A stretch of DNA of 64,000 bases from a phage. Positions within the stretch are counted from its first letter, which is position 1, and each line of letters starts with the position of its first letter. The notes under the pieces were generated by a model that was given only the letters and a program-made list of their open reading frames with translations, was not told the origin of the DNA and did not search any database. The stretch lies in the sequence record PZ738962.1, one strand, 5' to 3'. The position numbers and the translations under genes were made by a program. This document shows, piece after piece, positions 2,826 to 46,404 of this stretch.

Positions 2826-3566
2826 ATGTTTAACAACACTCTTTTTGCTCGCCTTGAATCGCAAAAGGATTATGAGAATACACGACAAACAGAGATTCTC
2901 AATCCTTATGTTAACTTTCACAAATATACAAATACTCAGACGTTAGCCGACGTTATGGTCGCCGAAGCTATTCAGATGCGAGGTGTAGAATTATATTACA
3001 TCCCTCGTGAATTTGTCAAACCAGATATGATCTTTGGTGAGGATGTTCAAAGCAAATTTACTAAAGCATGGAAATTTGCGGCTTATATTAACTCATTTGA
3101 TGGGTATGAAGGAGCGGGTAATTTCTTCTCTAGTTTCGGGTATCAAGCTAATGATGAATTAACTTTTACGGTTAACCCCAACCTATTCAAGCATCAAGTA
3201 GATGATCAAGAGCCAAAATCAGGTGACTTAATTTATATTCCAATGAGTAATGATTTATTTGAAATTAATTACGTTGAGCCATATCAGCCGTTTTTTCAGG
3301 CTGGCAAAAATGCCATGCGTAAAATTATTGCAGAGAAATTCGTGTATAGCGGTGAGGAATTGCGACCAGAATTACAACGCAATGAGGGAATTAATGTTGA
3401 TGAGTTTGCGGATCTGGATCTTGCACCGATCACTAATCTGGACGGGTTAACAGATATCAACCTAGATCAGTACAAAGAAGATAAGCAATTCAGAAGCGAA
3501 GGACAAGATTTTATTGATCCGTTTGATCCTATTAATGGCAAGGGTTCACCTTTCGCCGATTTTTGA
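2826..3566 (+). CDS. 14: neck protein gp14
   Basis: 246 aa; synteny after gene 13; N-terminus LFARLE...NPYVN resembles T4 gp14. Confidence 0.7.
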
Positions 3567-5209: not shown

Positions 5210-8520
<3,311 letters not shown>

Positions 8521-15002: not shown

Positions 15003-16601
15003 ATGAAAACTACCAAAGAACTGATGGAAAAATGGTCCCCGCTGCTGGAGAACGAAAAACTGCCGGAAATCGCAACTGCGTCTAAGCAGAAACTGGTTGC
15101 TAAAATTCTGGAATCTCAGGAAGCGGATTTTGCTGTAGACCCGATCTATAAGGATGAAAAAGTTGTTGAAGCATTCGGTGGCTTTATCGCAGAAGCCGAA
15201 GTTGCTGGCGACCACGGTTATGACGCATCTCAGATCGCGGCTGGTCAGACTACTGGTGCAATCACTAACGTAGGTCCGGCTGTTATCGGTATGGTTCGCC
15301 GTGCTATTCCTAACCTGATCGCATTTGATATTTGTGGCGTTCAGCCGATGAGCACTCCGACTAGCCAGATCTTTGCAATCCGTTCTGTATACGGTCCAGA
15401 TCCGCTGGCAGGTGGCAATGCTCAGAATGTTCGTGAAGCATTCCATCCGATGTATGCGCCAGATGCTTTCCATAGCTCTCTTGCTGCTAAAGGTGCATCT
15501 GTAGGTTCTCCGAATGGGACTCCGTTTGCTAAACTAACTATCAATACTCAGATTGAAGCAGGTGATATTGTACACCACACCTTCGCAGAAACTGGCATTG
15601 CATATCTGCAAAACGTTACCGCTGGCGCAGTAACCCCGGCCAAATCTGGCAGCGAGTCCGAAGATGAAGTTGTCATGAAGCTGATGGAAGAAGGTAAACT
15701 GGCTGAAATCGCTTTCGGTATGGCGACTTCCATTGCCGAAATTCAGGAAGGCTTTAACGGTTCCAGCAATAACCCGTGGGCTGAAATGTCAATGCGTATT
15801 GACAAACAGGTTGTTGAAGCGAAATCTCGCCAACTGAAAGCCCGTTACTCTATCGAAGTTGCGCAGGATCTGCGTGCTGTACACGGTATGGATGCTGACG
15901 CTGAACTGAATGCTATCCTGGCTAACGAAGTTCTGCTGGAAATCAACCGTGAAATCGTTGACGTGATCAACTTTACCGCTCAGGTTGGTAAGACTGGTAT
16001 GACTCAGACCGTTGGTTCTAAAGCTGGTGTATTTGACCTGCAAGACCCGATCGATACTCGCGGTGCTCGTTGGGCTGGTGAATCCTTCAAATCTCTGATC
16101 TACCAGATCGACAAAGAAGCTGCTGAAATCGCTCGTCAGACTGGTCGCGGTGCTGGTAACTTTGTTATCGCTTCCCGTAACGTTGTAAACATTCTGGCTT
16201 CTGCTGATCAGGGTATCAGTCTTGCTATGCAGGGTGCTGCAAAAGGTCTGAATACCGACACCACTAAAGCTGTTTTCGCTGGTGTTCTGGCTGGTAAGTA
16301 CAAAGTGTTCATCGACCAGTATGCTCGTCAAGACTACTTCACCGTAGGTTACAAAGGCGACAACGAAATGGATGCTGGTATCTACTATGCTCCGTATGTT
16401 GCTCTGACTCCGCTGCGTGCAACTGATCCGCAGTCTTTCCACCCGGTTCTGGGCTTCAAGACTCGCTACGGCATCGGTATTAACCCGTTTGCAGACAGCA
16501 AATCCCAGGCACCGTCCGCTCGCATCACCTCCGGTATGTTGAGCAAAGACAGCGTAGGTAAAAACGCATACTTCCGTCGTGTATGGGTTAAAGGTTGCTA
16601 A
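15003..16601 (+). CDS. 23: major capsid protein gp23
   Basis: 532 aa; synteny; strongly biased codon usage typical of a highly expressed late gene. Confidence 0.9.
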   Translation: MKTTKELMEKWSPLLENEKLPEIATASKQKLVAKILESQEADFAVDPIYKDEKVVEAFGGFIAEAEVAGDHGYDASQIAAGQTTGAITNVGPAVIGMVRRAIPNLIAFDICGVQPMSTPTSQIFAIRSVYGPDPLAGGNAQNVREAFHPMYAPDAFHSSLAAKGASVGSPNGTPFAKLTINTQIEAGDIVHHTFAETGIAYLQNVTAGAVTPAKSGSESEDEVVMKLMEEGKLAEIAFGMATSIAEIQEGFNGSSNNPWAEMSMRIDKQVVEAKSRQLKARYSIEVAQDLRAVHGMDADAELNAILANEVLLEINREIVDVINFTAQVGKTGMTQTVGSKAGVFDLQDPIDTRGARWAGESFKSLIYQIDKEAAEIARQTGRGAGNFVIASRNVVNILASADQGISLAMQGAAKGLNTDTTKAVFAGVLAGKYKVFIDQYARQDYFTVGYKGDNEMDAGIYYAPYVALTPLRATDPQSFHPVLGFKTRYGIGINPFADSKSQAPSARITSGMLSKDSVGKNAYFRRVWVKGC

Positions 16602-16686
16602 TATAAGCCAATTCCTGAAAACTCCGGTCGGGTGCAATACCCGACTTATCATAAACCTTATGACAGTGTAAAGTGTTAATTCCAAA

Positions 16687-16715
16687 GGGAAGACTCGAAA
16701 GGGTCTTCCCTTTTT
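16687..16715 (+). terminator. rho-independent terminator after gene 23 (gggaagac-tcgaaa-gtcttccc-TTTTT)
   Basis: perfect 8 bp stem plus T5 read directly. Confidence 0.7.
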
Positions 16716-16731
16716 GCGTATTATAACCCGT

Positions 16732-16739
16732 TATAAATA
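16732..16739 (+). promoter_or_regulatory. TATAAATA late-promoter-like motif in the 23-24 spacer
   Basis: exact octamer just downstream of the gene 23 terminator. Confidence 0.35.
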
Positions 16740-40913: not shown

Positions 40914-41234
40914 TTAGTCCTCATTTATAAGGTCAAACCAATTGTTTTTCGCATAATGCTTAATGCGTGCTTGATCTGCTTCCGCTGGTGATAGATTCCA
41001 TGCAACCACTACAACTTCTGACGCATCGTCATCCGTTTCTGATACCCAATGATTGTGATTCATACAGTTATTTGCGATCGAGTGAGCAAATGATTTCATC
41101 ACTGGAGACGTATAATCATAGTAACGGATTTTCAGATTTTCATCAACGTACAAATAGATCGTATAAGGTTTATATTCAGTAACCAGTAACAGACAGTTAC
41201 GCAATTCTGGGAAAATCTTTTTAGTTAATTTCAT
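40914..41234 (-). CDS. H-x-H-W family protein, member C
   Basis: start moved to ATG at 41234 (GAGGA Shine-Dalgarno, directly after upstream stop); YTIYLYVDENL...MNHNHW...VVVAWN. Confidence 0.45.
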   Translation of the reverse strand: MKLTKKIFPELRNCLLLVTEYKPYTIYLYVDENLKIRYYDYTSPVMKSFAHSIANNCMNHNHWVSETDDDASEVVVVAWNLSPAEADQARIKHYAKNNWFDLINED

Positions 41235-41235
41235 T

Positions 41236-41454
41236 TTATAATCCTCGGTCGCGGCTATAGTACACGGTACGCCATACAATTTCATGTTTCGTGTCGCTCC
41301 AGCACACGATCTCATTTACTCTTAAATCTTTGTTATCAACAAAAGATGAACATTGTGACGCTTCTTTCATCATTTTATCTGCTGTTTTCTCATCAAATAC
41401 AGCACAGATTTCTTTATACACTCGATAATCTTTGAATTGACTCTGAATACCCAT
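41236..41454 (-). CDS. hypothetical small protein (paralog of 41414..41671)
   Basis: 72 aa; shares F.EKMM..AS.C.SF with the next gene. Confidence 0.4.
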   Translation of the reverse strand: MGIQSQFKDYRVYKEICAVFDEKTADKMMKEASQCSSFVDNKDLRVNEIVCWSDTKHEIVWRTVYYSRDRGL

Positions 41455-41671
41455 AATTCACACCATTCCAACCAATTGTTTTTGAGAAAACGTTTATCCA
41501 CTGTTGAGTGTAACATGTTTCTTTCCATGATACAATACGAGTAGAATAATGGTTTTTGTTTCCAGAAAAGGACGGGCATTTTGATGCATCTTCCATCATC
41601 TTTTCGGCGAACTCTGGTGCGTATACTCGCAGGATCTGTTGATATGCTTTGTATTCTTTAAATTTGCTCAT
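41414..41671 (-). CDS. hypothetical small protein (paralog of 41236..41454)
   Basis: start moved to ATG 41671 (AAGGT Shine-Dalgarno). Confidence 0.4.
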   Translation of the reverse strand: MSKFKEYKAYQQILRVYAPEFAEKMMEDASKCPSFSGNKNHYSTRIVSWKETCYTQQWINVFSKTIGWNGVNYGYSESIQRLSSV

Positions 41672-41936
41672 AATCATTCACTACCTTATCAGCTTCTTTT
41701 GTTGTTTTTACATCAACTGCGATAACTCGTAAAGGTTCGTCATGGTTCCACCAGTGGTCATGAATATCAGCTTGTGATTTATCACCAAAGGAATCACGAA
41801 TATCATTTTTACATTTATAGCTAATGTGACCTTCATAGTCAACATAAAGGTAATTATCGAAAATCGGCGTTTTTAAGATCATACCGAAAAATCTTTCTTT
41901 GTGTGTCTTATCCAGCGTTGCAGTAATTCGCATCAT
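41658..41936 (-). CDS. H-x-H-W family protein, member D
   Basis: 92 aa; NYLYVDYEG...IHDHWW...RVIAVDV. Confidence 0.5.
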   Translation of the reverse strand: MMRITATLDKTHKERFFGMILKTPIFDNYLYVDYEGHISYKCKNDIRDSFGDKSQADIHDHWWNHDEPLRVIAVDVKTTKEADKVVNDYEQI

Positions 41937-42394: not shown

Positions 42395-42423
42395 ATTATA
42401 GGGGATCGGTGATCCCCTGTCAA
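42395..42423 (-). promoter_or_regulatory. promoter-stem-loop cassette (TTGACA, GGGGATCACCGATCCCC, TATAAT)
   Basis: perfect consensus hexamers, 17 nt palindromic spacer. Confidence 0.6.
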
Positions 42424-42430
42424 CAACTTT

Positions 42431-42739
42431 TTATTCTTCATCTTCATTTTTATCTTTATATGCGTACTTCATAAATTTGTCTGCTACTTTGTCCGCGTTT
42501 TCAGGTTCGACGTCTGACGCTAGGACAACAGCTAGTTCGGTTTTGTCGTTTCCATCATACCAATGATTATGAGTGTCGTTTTCTTCGATATAAAACGAAT
42601 CATTTGGAGTTGTGCGACAATATACGTCTAAATTCCCGTCGATATAAAAGATCCAATCCGAATACAAAATGATTGCTTTAGCCAGATTTTTATTGTCTCT
42701 TACAAAAGGTTCCGCGACAAATAGCTTAGTATGTTCCAT
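42431..42739 (-). CDS. H-x-H-W family protein, member E
   Basis: start moved to ATG 42739 (GAGGA Shine-Dalgarno); WIFYIDGNL...DTHNHW...LAVVLASDV. Confidence 0.5.
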   Translation of the reverse strand: MEHTKLFVAEPFVRDNKNLAKAIILYSDWIFYIDGNLDVYCRTTPNDSFYIEENDTHNHWYDGNDKTELAVVLASDVEPENADKVADKFMKYAYKDKNEDEE

Positions 42740-43003: not shown

Positions 43004-43306
43004 TTACGCAAAATGGCGTGTCAATGCTTCTTTTGCTGTTCCGCTAAGATTCTCGATCTCTCCTGGCATAACATCAACCGCAAGAACTTCTACAACATCC
43101 TCTGATCCTAACCAGTGAGTATGACCTTTGTAGAACTTGATATCCCATTTATCGCTATCGCTAGCCCACCACACATCACCGTCGATAAAGTTGATGTAAA
43201 GCACACTACGCCACATTGAATTAATTACTTTCAATACTGCGCCTTTCATCTCTTCCACGGTGTGGTCTTCCATTTTGAAGACCTCGCCTACCTTAACTTT
43301 TGCCAT
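43004..43306 (-). CDS. H-x-H-W family protein, member F
   Basis: 100 aa; LYINFIDGDVW...KGHTHW...EVLAVDV. Confidence 0.5.
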   Translation of the reverse strand: MAKVKVGEVFKMEDHTVEEMKGAVLKVINSMWRSVLYINFIDGDVWWASDSDKWDIKFYKGHTHWLGSEDVVEVLAVDVMPGEIENLSGTAKEALTRHFA

Positions 43307-43537: not shown

Positions 43538-43566
43538 AGTATAGGGGATCGGTGATCCCCTGTCAA
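43538..43566 (-). promoter_or_regulatory. promoter-stem-loop cassette (TTGACA, GGGGATCACCGATCCCC, TATACT)
   Basis: read directly. Confidence 0.55.
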
Positions 43567-43574
43567 CAACTTTT

Positions 43575-43886
43575 TTAAAGTTTTTCCATGATAACGGTCA
43601 TAATTACATCTTCTGCGCGAGCGGTCAGATTATCAGCGTCAGCATGTGGGCGGCTGGTTGTTACAGAGATAACACCGTTGCGCACTGGTTTGATGTTGAT
43701 ATCAAGATGATCCGCGAAACGTTCGCCAGTTACAGAATGAATTTTGGTGTTAAATTCTTTTGCCAGTGCCTTGCGAACTTCACGAATCAGGGTAGCGTTT
43801 TTCAGTTGGTTCTCCGCGCTCATGGTCTTCTGGGTGTTCATGGTTCCGTCGAAGTCAATCATTGGCAGCGTTACGATGTATTTCAT
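43575..43886 (-). CDS. hypothetical protein (paralog of 40262..40549)
   Basis: start moved to ATG 43886 (MKYIVTLPM...); shares KEFN.K motif. Confidence 0.45.
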   Translation of the reverse strand: MKYIVTLPMIDFDGTMNTQKTMSAENQLKNATLIREVRKALAKEFNTKIHSVTGERFADHLDINIKPVRNGVISVTTSRPHADADNLTARAEDVIMTVIMEKL

Positions 43887-43931
43887 TTTTGATTCTCCGT
43901 TTAAGAAAGTGTGTTTCGTTTTGATGTGTGT

Positions 43932-43960
43932 AGTATAGGGGATCACCGATCCCCTGTCAA
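43932..43960 (-). promoter_or_regulatory. promoter-stem-loop cassette (TTGACA, GGGGATCGGTGATCCCC, TATACT)
   Basis: read directly. Confidence 0.55.
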
Positions 43961-43972
43961 CAACTTTTTGAA

Positions 43973-44449
43973 TTATTTTTCTTGATGCTCGCGATCGTAC
44001 TTTTCGAAATAAAATTCTACTGGCTGGTCGTGGATTGACAGCAAGCCAAAGCGTTTAGCCGCTCGCAATCCCATATTGCGCTGAATGTACTTCTGGAAGT
44101 TCTCGCGTATACACTTACGCCAGTATTCTAAGCCCATACAGCTTTTATAAAGATTGCATTGCACACACGCCGGATTCATGTTATCAAGTATATCATGCTC
44201 CGGTTTATGCATTCCTACAACCTTATATTTCCATGATCCATCATCATTACGGGCAATTCGTCCATTTTCATCATAGACTACCTTTGAGCGTCGCAATACT
44301 GGTTTGATGTGGTCCGCGTGCCAGCGATCCCCTAGTTCCTCGCCACAATAGGCACAACGTCCACCATATTTCATTTTCAGGATCTGGCGTTGCTCTTTCT
44401 TTGACAATTTTTTAGGTTTAGGGGCTTTCGCCCCTTCATTATCACACAT
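43973..44449 (-). CDS. HNH homing endonuclease (Mob-like), free-standing upstream of ligase
   Basis: 158 aa; CAYCG...HADHIKP...N...CVQCN (HNH with zinc-binding Cys pairs); stop overlaps ligase start region. Confidence 0.65.
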   Translation of the reverse strand: MCDNEGAKAPKPKKLSKKEQRQILKMKYGGRCAYCGEELGDRWHADHIKPVLRRSKVVYDENGRIARNDDGSWKYKVVGMHKPEHDILDNMNPACVQCNLYKSCMGLEYWRKCIRENFQKYIQRNMGLRAAKRFGLLSIHDQPVEFYFEKYDREHQEK

Positions 44450-45938
44450 CGAATACCTCTTTTACTGTATTTGCAGTGGTCTTGTCGTAGCGAATACGTT
44501 TGATGATTGGGAGAAATAAAGAGAACTCCGGTTCATCTTCTTTACGTGATTTGCTGCGGATATACCCGTTGCATGTCATCTCAATGACTTTTCCAATCAG
44601 GTTATGACGGTCAGCCCATAACATTTCTCGGTCGAGTTCATTTCGACGATCGAACGGAATTACACGTTCGATACCATCATCACCTTTTTCGGTTGTAGTG
44701 TCGGTTAATCCCGATCCGGTGTTAGTCATCATTCGTCCGCACGCACTACGGACAGTAAAACCGCCTACCTTATTGGGGTCTTTACTATGCGGATATACAT
44801 CAACAATTTCCGCGTCGAAGTCAATCACTTCTTTAAATTTAACCTGATCTTTACTACGGCGATCTTCAAATACACCATGTAAATTTTTAAGGATAATACC
44901 TTCTAAGCCCATGTTGACATAACGATGATATACTTCGCGAGCTTCATCGATATTGTTAACTACAGTGTTTTCGATGATCTGAACACGAGGATCGTTAAGT
45001 TCTTCAACAATCTGTTTTAGTTCTTCGAATCGATCTTTATATTGCTTCGTTGCTTTCTCGTTTCCGTAATACACATCACGGTCGATAACATCCCAGACAG
45101 TGTAAACAATACATTGGGCTTCTTCTTTTGGAATAGTTCCTTTAAGTGATTTGTTGAGGATACCATTTCCGGTCTGACGATCTGCAACAACGGATTCTTT
45201 CACTGCTTCCGCTACTGGCGTTAATGGCATTTCCTCTTCTTCAAATATCCATGACAGAGTACCATCATAAACGCTTTCAACGAAGTTCTGCGCTGGTGTT
45301 TGAGAAAGGGTAGGCATATATACCAATTCGCCATCTAGAACAATTCCACGGCCTCGTAGACGCTCTAAAACCGCAAACAAATCATCAAGCCCTTGATAGG
45401 TATTACCTGAGCGGGTATAGATTGCTAATGTTTCCCCGTCAATATCAGCCATACCACGAGCGCCATCGCTTTTAAGTTGTGCATACGCCGGATACTTGAT
45501 ATTAGCAATCGTCTTATCAGAACATGACGATGCAAGGTGGCACGGTTGCTGGGGGATCAGTTTCTTCCATACCTTGTTTGCAGTGGTAGCGGAACAGCCG
45601 CATTCCAGATCACGATTCAGGACCATCATTGCAACTTTAGCATCATCCTCTGACAAGCAAGTCAGAGTATCGGTAACTAGTTGTAATGCTGCATTACCAG
45701 TTACTTGACGCGTGGCAAGTTTATTTTTAAAGACCTGTAATGCACCGGATAAAGACAATACAGACGAATAGCGAGACGGTTTATCGTATTTCTTTACGCC
45801 AAACGTAACCTGTTTGCAATATGCCAGATAAAAGCATTCTTTCAGCGTTTCATTGCTTGCTGATTCTTTCAGAATCTTTTCTTTCAGCGATGTTTTGTCT
45901 GTTGCTGCAAGCTGATTAATGATATTAAGAATTGACAT
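44442..45938 (-). CDS. 30: ATP-dependent DNA ligase gp30
   Basis: ORF-track start is GTG; ATG 45938 with GAGGTG Shine-Dalgarno; adenylation motif AQLKSDGAR (KxDG); collinear with recalled T4 ligase. Confidence 0.9.
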   Translation of the reverse strand: MSILNIINQLAATDKTSLKEKILKESASNETLKECFYLAYCKQVTFGVKKYDKPSRYSSVLSLSGALQVFKNKLATRQVTGNAALQLVTDTLTCLSEDDAKVAMMVLNRDLECGCSATTANKVWKKLIPQQPCHLASSCSDKTIANIKYPAYAQLKSDGARGMADIDGETLAIYTRSGNTYQGLDDLFAVLERLRGRGIVLDGELVYMPTLSQTPAQNFVESVYDGTLSWIFEEEEMPLTPVAEAVKESVVADRQTGNGILNKSLKGTIPKEEAQCIVYTVWDVIDRDVYYGNEKATKQYKDRFEELKQIVEELNDPRVQIIENTVVNNIDEAREVYHRYVNMGLEGIILKNLHGVFEDRRSKDQVKFKEVIDFDAEIVDVYPHSKDPNKVGGFTVRSACGRMMTNTGSGLTDTTTEKGDDGIERVIPFDRRNELDREMLWADRHNLIGKVIEMTCNGYIRSKSRKEDEPEFSLFLPIIKRIRYDKTTANTVKEVFDV

Positions 45939-46404
45939 TTTCACCTCGTTTTGTTAAACGTTCACGAATATCATTGAGGATACTACAAAATTCCGATTCA
46001 GTCAATATAGTCTTTAACGGATCAGTTCCACCTATACTATGACGTAATTTCTTATTTCCGGTAGCGAGTAATGCTTTACAAAATTCTGGGTTATTCCGTG
46101 CCATCGTAACAAATGCCAGATGTACCAGTCTGTAATAATGCTCACTCATTCGATGAATCGGGCGACCCTGAAAATATAACATGTGATTCTCAATCTTTTC
46201 AGTTCTTCCGGTTCTTTTTGCTTTGCCACCGTGCATCAAAAAGATTTCTCTTTGTCTCTGAGGGTTCTTAAATCTTAGCCCCTGTAAAAATCCTTCTGTG
46301 CTGTTAATATCGCAGCCAAATAAACGGAATGGTCTTTTATTGAAATTACTCAATTCACCCGATGGATAGGGTCCACCCGCATAGATATCAATTTCAGAAG
46401 TCAT
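45925..46404 (-). CDS. NADAR (YbiA-like) domain protein
   Basis: 159 aa; YAGGPYPSGELSNF...STEGFLQGLRF...EFCKALLATGNKKL parallels E. coli YbiA FYS..FSNFA...TSEHYFQAQKF...ELRALLLATAP (recalled). Confidence 0.55.
   Translation of the reverse strand: MTSEIDIYAGGPYPSGELSNFNKRPFRLFGCDINSTEGFLQGLRFKNPQRQREIFLMHGGKAKRTGRTEKIENHMLYFQGRPIHRMSEHYYRLVHLAFVTMARNNPEFCKALLATGNKKLRHSIGGTDPLKTILTESEFCSILNDIRERLTKRGENVNS

Follow-up and report, generated by a model that had tools for sequence, protein, structure and literature searches.

Organization of the gene 30 locus

The window analyzed here is a 64,000-nucleotide stretch of phage DNA (PZ738962.1) that belongs to a Krischvirus, i.e., an RB49-like T4-type coliphage. 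A gene for a predicted HNH endonuclease lies next to gene 30, which encodes the ATP-dependent DNA ligase (Table 1). Over 3 kb around the HNH gene, identity to phages kaaroe and PTE-Eco09 is 99.4-99.6%; to the RB49-type records listed, which were drawn from 60 matching records, it is 96.6-99.6%. A preliminary description of this DNA, made from the sequence alone, had noted a 158-aa ORF beside a DNA ligase gene. The ORF list bears out this ORF with its ATG start, and profile matches identify the neighbor as gene 30. The preliminary description had also placed the HNH gene upstream of gene 30, with its stop codon overlapping the start of the ligase. The arrangement is the reverse. Both genes read on the minus strand, which puts the HNH gene immediately downstream (3') of gene 30, and it is the HNH start codon that overlaps the ligase stop codon (ATGTGTGA). 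In other words, gene 30 is the upstream cistron of the pair, running from 45944 or 45938 to 44442, and the HNH gene follows from 44449 to 43973. The two values for the ligase start correspond to a GTG in the mechanically called ORF (45944) and an ATG annotated in relatives (45938).

Table 1. Features of the ligase-HNH locus, the predicted HNH protein, and the adjoining hyperplastic region in the window.
Feature	Position	Strand	Details
Gene 30, ATP-dependent DNA ligase	44442..45944	-	500-aa ORF; PF01068 at 2.8e-22; phrog_114 at 1.4e-141
Predicted HNH endonuclease gene	43973..44449	-	158-aa ATG ORF; ortholog, by sequence, of RB49 ORF212 / RB49p212
Stop/start overlap ATGTGTGA	44442..44449	-	8-nt overlap; HNH ATG 44449-44447, ligase TGA 44444-44442
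Shine-Dalgarno-like AAGAGG	44456..44461	-	6 nt upstream of the HNH ATG, within the ligase 3' coding end
Hairpin GGGGC-GAAA-GCCCC	44421..44434	-	HNH codons 6-10; in both MFE and centroid RNA folds
PeSL-type element TTGACA-GGGGATCGGTGATCCCC-TATACT	43932..43960	-	12 nt after the HNH stop codon; promoter scan 11/12; folded stem-loop
Second PeSL copy	43538..43566	-	
Third PeSL copy	42395..42423	-	
First ORF after the HNH gene	43575..43946	-	phrog_7474
Paralog-like small ORF	43004..43306	-	
Paralog-like small ORF	42431..42739	-	
Paralog-like small ORF	41658..41936	-	
Paralog-like small ORF	40914..41237	-	
Zinc site of the HNH protein	residues C32, C35, C95, C98		predicted
Catalytic residues of the HNH protein	residues D46-H47, N90, N99		predicted
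C-terminal helical segment of the HNH protein	about residues 107-156		predicted

The minus strand at the junction reads ...AAGAGGTATTCG ATG TGT GA..., and the identical 8-nt overlap is annotated in RB49, ELT3, kaaroe, Makalu_002, SSG23, Phi1, G2494, Cognac, and UPWr_E1. A Shine-Dalgarno-like sequence precedes the HNH start codon, and the Makalu_002 record has a ribosome_binding_site feature at the corresponding position. The ATGTGTGA junction suggests that translation of the HNH gene is coupled to that of the ligase. Scans of the sequence immediately ahead of the HNH gene detected neither a T4 late promoter (TATAAATA) nor a strong sigma-70 promoter. The HNH gene is the last gene of a conserved cd-31-30.3-30 block and lies directly before a hyperplastic region. 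Gene overlaps are common across this operon; for example, 30.3 and 30 overlap too.

A hairpin was found within the HNH coding sequence, 13 nt past the start codon, with no U-tract after it. The hairpin falls in a short N-terminal insertion (DNEGAKAP) that is missing from the shorter N-terminus of a 70%-identical lineage represented by contig L011. In T4, the hairpins at the 5' coding ends of the endonuclease genes mobE and segF are known terminators. The location of the mobE and segF hairpins in the 5' coding regions has been described together with the finding that seven free-standing endonuclease genes of T4 have no promoter of their own and are read as cassettes from upstream transcripts (PMC2988022).

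The hyperplastic region after the HNH gene

The start of the hyperplastic small-ORF region is marked by a PeSL-type element just past the HNH stop codon. A PeSL (promoter-early stem-loop) is an early promoter with a stem-loop between its -35 and -10 boxes (PMC2839356). Arbiol et al. reported that PeSL, as repeated cassettes, mediate the shuffling of ORFs in phi1 and RB49 (PMC2839356). Three PeSL copies are present in the window, as opposed to 0 expected. Their consensus of ~29 nt is TTGACA-GGGGATC(NNN)GATCCCC-TATA(C/A)T, in which a GC stem-loop contains two GATC sites. RB49 encodes a Dam methyltransferase (dam, positions 15923-16735 of record L109), which would act on the GATC sites of the PeSL stems.

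Indels between relatives are bounded by PeSL repeats. For example, the first ORF after the HNH gene is present in the window, kaaroe, and RB49, and absent from ELT3. In RB49-type phages, the HNH stop codon is directly followed by ORF211, an ORF of 114 aa whose N-terminus is hydrophobic and which the window lacks; the coordinates for these two observations are 43575-43946 on the minus strand of the window and 3109-3453 in record L001. ORF211 is a homolog of ORF1 of a Vibrio fischeri superintegron (PMC2839356). Further into the hyperplastic region, four tandem small ORFs appear paralog-like. They are only 23-27% identical to each other and share an invariant H-x-H-W followed by V-x-A (mostly V-x-A-x-D-V).

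Sequence motifs and predicted structure of the HNH protein

The 158-aa ORF matches the Pfam HNH profile PF01844 with 27 bits (E 5e-6; gathering score 21.4) and the PHROG 2118 family 'HNH endonuclease' at 7e-55. These profile matches agree with the preliminary description, which had read an HNH nuclease from a CxxC...HxDH...N...CxxCN motif. The motif itself also held up. A total of 179 database homologs were found at E<=1e-5, and in an alignment of 70 homologs C32-x-x-C35, H44-A-D46-H47, N90, and C95-x-x-C98-N99 are all invariant. Hallmarks of the HNH / His-Me finger superfamily are thus present in the form of the profile match, a D-H dyad with a structural Asn and a metal-binding Asn/His, two CxxC pairs, and a beta-beta-alpha-metal fold. 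As far as can be predicted from its sequence, the ORF is an intact small His-Me-finger (HNH) nuclease gene with a complete D-H...N...N set and a CxxC...CxxC zinc site.

An AlphaFold model of the protein was obtained with high confidence (pLDDT 93.4, pTM 0.82). In the model, the beta-beta-alpha-metal core is supplemented by an additional beta-hairpin at about residues 54-81 and by C-terminal helices spanning residues 107-156. The helices contain residues conserved across the 70 homologs (W110, R111, F146, F148, and E149). No second domain was detected in Pfam or NCBIfam searches, and the model is likewise a compact HNH core plus the C-terminal helices. A sequence search with the HNH protein gave no significant PDB match. 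Structural neighbors of the model were Cas9 HNH domains (7.7-6.9; figures as listed), McrA (6.5), the Gme HNH nicking endonuclease (6.2), the HNH protein of phage GVE2 (6.1), the HNH effectors PtuB, retron, and Cap5 (about 5-6), and T4 endonuclease VII (4.1). Foldseek gave the same structural picture, weakly, with generic HNH domains as its PDB matches.

Gme HNH and GVE2 HNH are nicking enzymes according to the titles of their structure entries (PMC3592412, PMC3765158). The window protein differs from these two proteins (4H9D and 5H0O) and from the phage Gamma HNH protein in two respects. First, it has the extra beta-hairpin insertion and a conserved C-terminal helical segment that ends in F-x-F-E. 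Second, those phage enzymes adjoin cos sites and terminase, whereas the window gene and its family do not. A defense role of the kind played by the PtuB, retron, and Cap5 HNH effectors was considered and rejected. The best PADLOC match was sub-threshold (E 4.6e-4, 18 bits), TIGR02646 scored 16.5 bits against a cut-off of 52, and the gene has no partner genes and resides in a lytic phage. The cleavage activity and specificity of the HNH protein are putative.

Earlier annotation of the gene in RB49-type phages

By sequence, the HNH gene is the ortholog of RB49 ORF212 (RB49p212, NP_891783.1), which is annotated as 'HNH endonuclease' in RefSeq. Nolan et al. in 2006 placed RB49ORF212c under 'putative mobile DNA elements' (PMC1524935, Table 3). 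Likewise, Petrov et al. in 2010 counted 'other HNH' putative homing endonuclease genes, one in RB49, one in phi-1, and two in JSE (PMC2993671, Table 5). The gene is therefore already known, both from its RefSeq annotation and from counts of putative homing genes since 2006-2010. No experimental work on RB49 ORF212 or its orthologs was found in the literature.

RB49 ORF212 and its orthologs in phi1, JSE, GEC-3S, ECD7, and other Krischviruses are the same gene as that in the window. Protein identity is 97.5-100%, the gene occupies the same place after gene 30 with the same 8-nt overlap, and nothing material is different. The RB49-type alleles encode 157 aa, their last seven residues are slightly different, and the extra membrane-protein gene ORF211 comes next, which is missing here. 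Because many BLAST alignments end 16 nt early, the 3' end of the HNH gene was suspected of containing a recombination junction. This possibility was rejected, as the RB49-type C-terminus is homologous and diverged (EREN-KE vs DREHQEK) and the ORF211 insertion starts past the stop codon.

RB49 has a second, unrelated endonuclease gene of the AP2-HNH type, ORF040 (positions 2381-2935 of L109), which adjoins gene 47. According to the literature, ORF040 is unique to RB49, i.e., sporadic. A relation of the window gene to ORF040 was rejected, as no similarity was found between them.

Fixation and constraint of the HNH gene in Krischvirus

Is the HNH gene a mobile element at present? The preliminary description regarded it as a free-standing homing endonuclease that targets a conserved essential gene. 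Part of this claim stands: the gene encodes a predicted HNH nuclease, is non-intronic, and abuts a conserved essential gene. What is lacking is a patchy distribution among close relatives, by which a homing element would be recognized in a population. HNH DNA was found in 59 phage records at 96-100% identity, and in all of them, which are full Krischvirus records, it lies directly after the ligase gene (59/59). Searching with the ligase and the junction together recovered those 59 records again and, in addition, a 1.5-kb RB49 fragment whose end lies within the ligase. A comparison of ligase loci in related phages, which had been suggested earlier as a check of the homing claim, hence revealed a fixed gene, and the presence in some close relatives and absence from others that is expected of the T4 mob/seg type was not seen.

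Metagenomic data agree with the isolate genomes. Two IMG/VR Krischvirus contigs carry the HNH gene. A degenerate-codon scan found the ligase C-terminus in 3 JGI/ENA metagenome contigs, and the HNH gene comes next in 3/3. The gene is also present in two Logan/ENA contigs, L108 and L027, the latter with the first 75 codons only. No Krischvirus genome or empty site without the HNH gene was found in the phage collection, in IMG/VR, or among metagenome contigs that include the ligase 3' end.

A divergent lineage was recovered in two short Logan contigs (L011 and L012; SRR8048111 and SRR8048117). In this lineage, the C-terminal half of the ligase is 71% identical and the HNH protein 70% identical to those of the window. 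The HNH gene of L011 begins on the ligase stop codon, with TAATG as the overlap instead. The nonsynonymous divergence of the two genes is the same (dN 0.23 and 0.22), and synonymous sites are saturated in both (pS 0.86 and 0.69). Within the genus, dN/dS was calculated from 12 Krischvirus copies and was 0.023 for HNH, 0.037 for the ligase, 0.041 for 30.3, and 0.042 for gp31. In the same 12 copies, 34 polymorphic HNH codons are synonymous-only and 6 change the amino acid. Co-divergence with the ligase, together with the low dN/dS, indicates long vertical inheritance of the HNH gene under a constraint as strong as that on its essential neighbors. In the more distant T4-type phages of Aeromonas, with ligases that are 41-44% identical, the ligase gene is not followed by an HNH gene. 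The insertion is therefore peculiar to the clade of the window phage.

No lesions were found among the translated copies from the 59 isolate genomes, all of which give full-length matches. Three metagenomic copies deviate. In L108 (P0002; Logan ERR14656784, a 26.5-kb Krischvirus contig), a clean TGG->TAG change at positions 3328-3330 creates an amber codon at W110, and the remaining frame is conserved. This codon may reflect either a natural knockout or an error in sequencing. If it is real, the HNH gene can be dispensed with, at least for short periods. In a metagenome contig (L110/P0005), single bases are missing at three places within homopolymer runs, for which sequencing errors are the simplest explanation. 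In L027 (P0004; ENA ERZ16268176 scaffold_8678, 8.7-kb), the HNH frame at 5226-5504 is identical for 75 codons and then gives way to unrelated GC-richer sequence. L027 is probably an assembly chimera, not a natural fusion.

How well does homing account for these observations? According to this explanation, the protein is a still-functional free-standing homing endonuclease that cuts the gene 30 region of relatives without the gene and is copied there by recombinational repair, and the sampled population has already been swept. Several features speak in its favor. The gene is free-standing, has an HNH domain, and sits between conserved essential gene 30 and a PeSL-bounded variable region. In the literature it has been grouped with putative mobile elements or homing endonuclease genes (PMC1524935, PMC2993671). 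Its promoter-less, presumably co-transcribed arrangement matches that of several T4 mob/seg genes (PMC2988022), and it has a 5' coding hairpin, as do mobE and segF. The likeness is closest to T4 mobA-E, which are also of the HNH family, free-standing, located beside a conserved gene, and promoter-less on an upstream operon, with a 5' hairpin in mobE. Unlike mobA-E, however, the window gene is non-sporadic, has co-diverged with its neighbor since ancient times, shows very low dN/dS, and has no extra DNA-binding module detected.

The same differences bear on homing in general. Since no allele without the HNH gene is known, there is no homing target to point to; the gene occurs in 59/59 genomes and in all metagenomic copies. 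In the homing cycle, an endonuclease gene that is purely selfish should decay once it is fixed, but the HNH gene has a dN/dS of 0.023 and has co-diverged with the ligase down to 70% identity with saturated synonymous sites. NUMOD, AP2, or another DNA-binding extension suited to a long target site was not detected in the protein. Furthermore, its structural neighbors are Cas9, McrA, and nickase-type HNH proteins, with no characterized homing HNH endonuclease among the matches listed. Homing in its active form is thus considered unlikely. The 'homing endonuclease' label is plausible by analogy, but the distribution and evolution of the gene do not support it. The population feature that defines a homing element was looked for and does not appear in the compared sequences.

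Relatives of the HNH gene in other phages

The nearest phage homologs outside Krischvirus are <50% identical. Farther afield, at 39-50% identity, the relatives are small HNH genes that temperate phages of proteobacteria carry at scattered sites in their early recombination, replication, and integrase regions. For example, the P22-like phage g341c has a homolog in the ea region between recombination genes and int, an Acinetobacter prophage-like phage has one between a helicase and a repair gene, and phage Sasha has one between a methylase and a ParB-like gene. In lambdoid early-left operons, HNH genes occur sporadically near int or within Rec modules and may be mobile (PMC12315714). The lambdoid/P22-like early-left HNH genes (e.g. 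g341c gp24) are sequence homologs of the window gene at 38-45% identity. They are early-expressed among recombination, replication, and integration genes. They differ in being sporadic and carried by temperate phages, whereas the window gene is fixed, coupled to the ligase, and carried by a virulent T4-type phage.

A case of particular relevance to mobility is Morganella phage vB_Mm5, also a T4-type phage. Its 49%-identical homolog (positions 3980-4408 of L004) follows a vs.6/grcA-like gene and is not near a ligase gene. DNA alignments with related Morganella and Proteus phages end at about the start codon of this homolog. The vB_Mm5 gene looks like a sporadic insertion, which suggests that the HNH family can move. 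The presence of a family member where related phages stop aligning is also a point in favor of homing. A 516-bp ORF beside the vB_Mm5 homolog is annotated 'terminase large subunit' and is far too short for that name.

A scan of IMG/VR identified >545 relatives of the HNH protein. The best 80 of these >545 loci were surveyed for the largest ORF within 3.2 kb on either side, which yielded 156 ORFs. Integrases were the largest downstream ORF at 23 of 76 loci. Other largest neighbors, on either side, include RdgC, DnaB, lambda O/P, NinG, RecT, and ParB-HTH proteins. Neither a terminase nor a ligase was present among the 156 ORFs. These surroundings accord with those reported for the HNH genes of lambdoid early-left operons (PMC12315714).

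These neighborhoods bear on two other proposals. One is a non-homing role in either packaging, as a terminase cofactor of the HK97 gp74 type, or junction resolution, as an enzyme of the T4 endonuclease VII type. Hints in this direction are that the homolog in phage Bas79 lies two ORFs upstream of the large terminase gene, that the protein has weak PHROG matches to 'endonuclease VII' families (1.3e-9 and 6.3e-7), and that its 158 aa come close to the 157 aa of gp49. T4-type phages, however, package by the headful mechanism with the gp17 nuclease and are not known to need an HNH cofactor. The HNH gene adjoins the ligase gene, and terminase is found in 0/156 neighboring ORFs of the best 80 loci; the family is therefore not of the terminase-associated packaging type. 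A replacement for endonuclease VII, or a gp49 ortholog, was rejected because RB49 has its own gene 49 (RB49p061), the sequences are essentially unrelated, and the structural similarity is poor (4.1). The packaging and endonuclease VII roles are largely refuted and must be regarded as highly improbable.

The other proposal is that the HNH protein is a partner of the ligase. According to this 'nick and seal' model, nicks or breaks made by the HNH enzyme are resealed by the ligase, e.g., in the control of replication or recombination, and translational coupling ensures that the two are made together. The overlapping stop and start codons are consistent with it, as is the location of a Shine-Dalgarno sequence within the ligase gene. 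So are the maintenance of the pair across ~70%-identical lineages in which both proteins have diverged equally, and the equally strong constraint on both. However, adjacency is limited to this clade, with ligase in 0/156 of the largest neighboring ORFs of the best 80 loci. The vB_Mm5 homolog is elsewhere, the Aeromonas T4-type phages have no such gene after their ligase, and overlapping genes such as 30.3 and 30 are common in the operon. The adjacency appears from these comparisons to be a peculiarity of the Krischvirus-type clade and not a family-wide partnership. A dedicated ligase partner is accordingly a quite improbable explanation.

A probable resident nuclease kept by selection

The explanation that best accommodates the evidence, with a probability of roughly 0.55, is that the HNH gene is an anciently acquired resident nuclease gene that is kept by selection and is not currently spreading. 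The gene would have been acquired once, long ago, from the pool of small HNH genes in temperate phages. It would have landed at the border between gene 30 and the hyperplastic region shuffled by PeSL elements. Since then it may have been a resident early gene that is transcribed with gene 30 and translated by coupling to the ligase. Continuing selfish spread into empty sites would not be needed to explain its retention.

What would such a nuclease do? In the predicted active site, the general base would be His47, and one divalent metal would be bound by Asn99 together with Asp46. Because Gme HNH and GVE2 HNH are nicking enzymes, the window protein may, by analogy, most likely nick or cut duplex DNA at short and frequent sites. 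Selection has persisted until synonymous sites became saturated, which implies that the phage benefits from the gene. The enzyme might damage host DNA or that of co-infecting relatives, or it might supply recombinogenic nicks for recombination-dependent replication.

A related reading is that the gene is a domesticated former mobile HNH endonuclease, long kept for an advantage to the phage, either as a weapon against co-infecting relatives or host DNA or as a nick-and-seal partner of the ligase in recombination-dependent replication. This history is rather improbable in that specific form. A homing endonuclease gene that is selected because it excludes relatives without the gene is compatible with both fixation and purifying selection.

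The importance of a resident nuclease gene at this locus beyond correct annotation is small, as the gene is an ordinary and already annotated one. The useful addition is a correction of the label. The HNH gene is fixed, strongly constrained, and co-inherited with the ligase, and it does not behave as a sporadic mobile element; motif and position therefore do not by themselves warrant the name 'homing endonuclease'. If the gene were shown to benefit the phage, it would neatly illustrate a resident or domesticated HNH nuclease, in a phage genus that is both well sampled and in therapeutic use.
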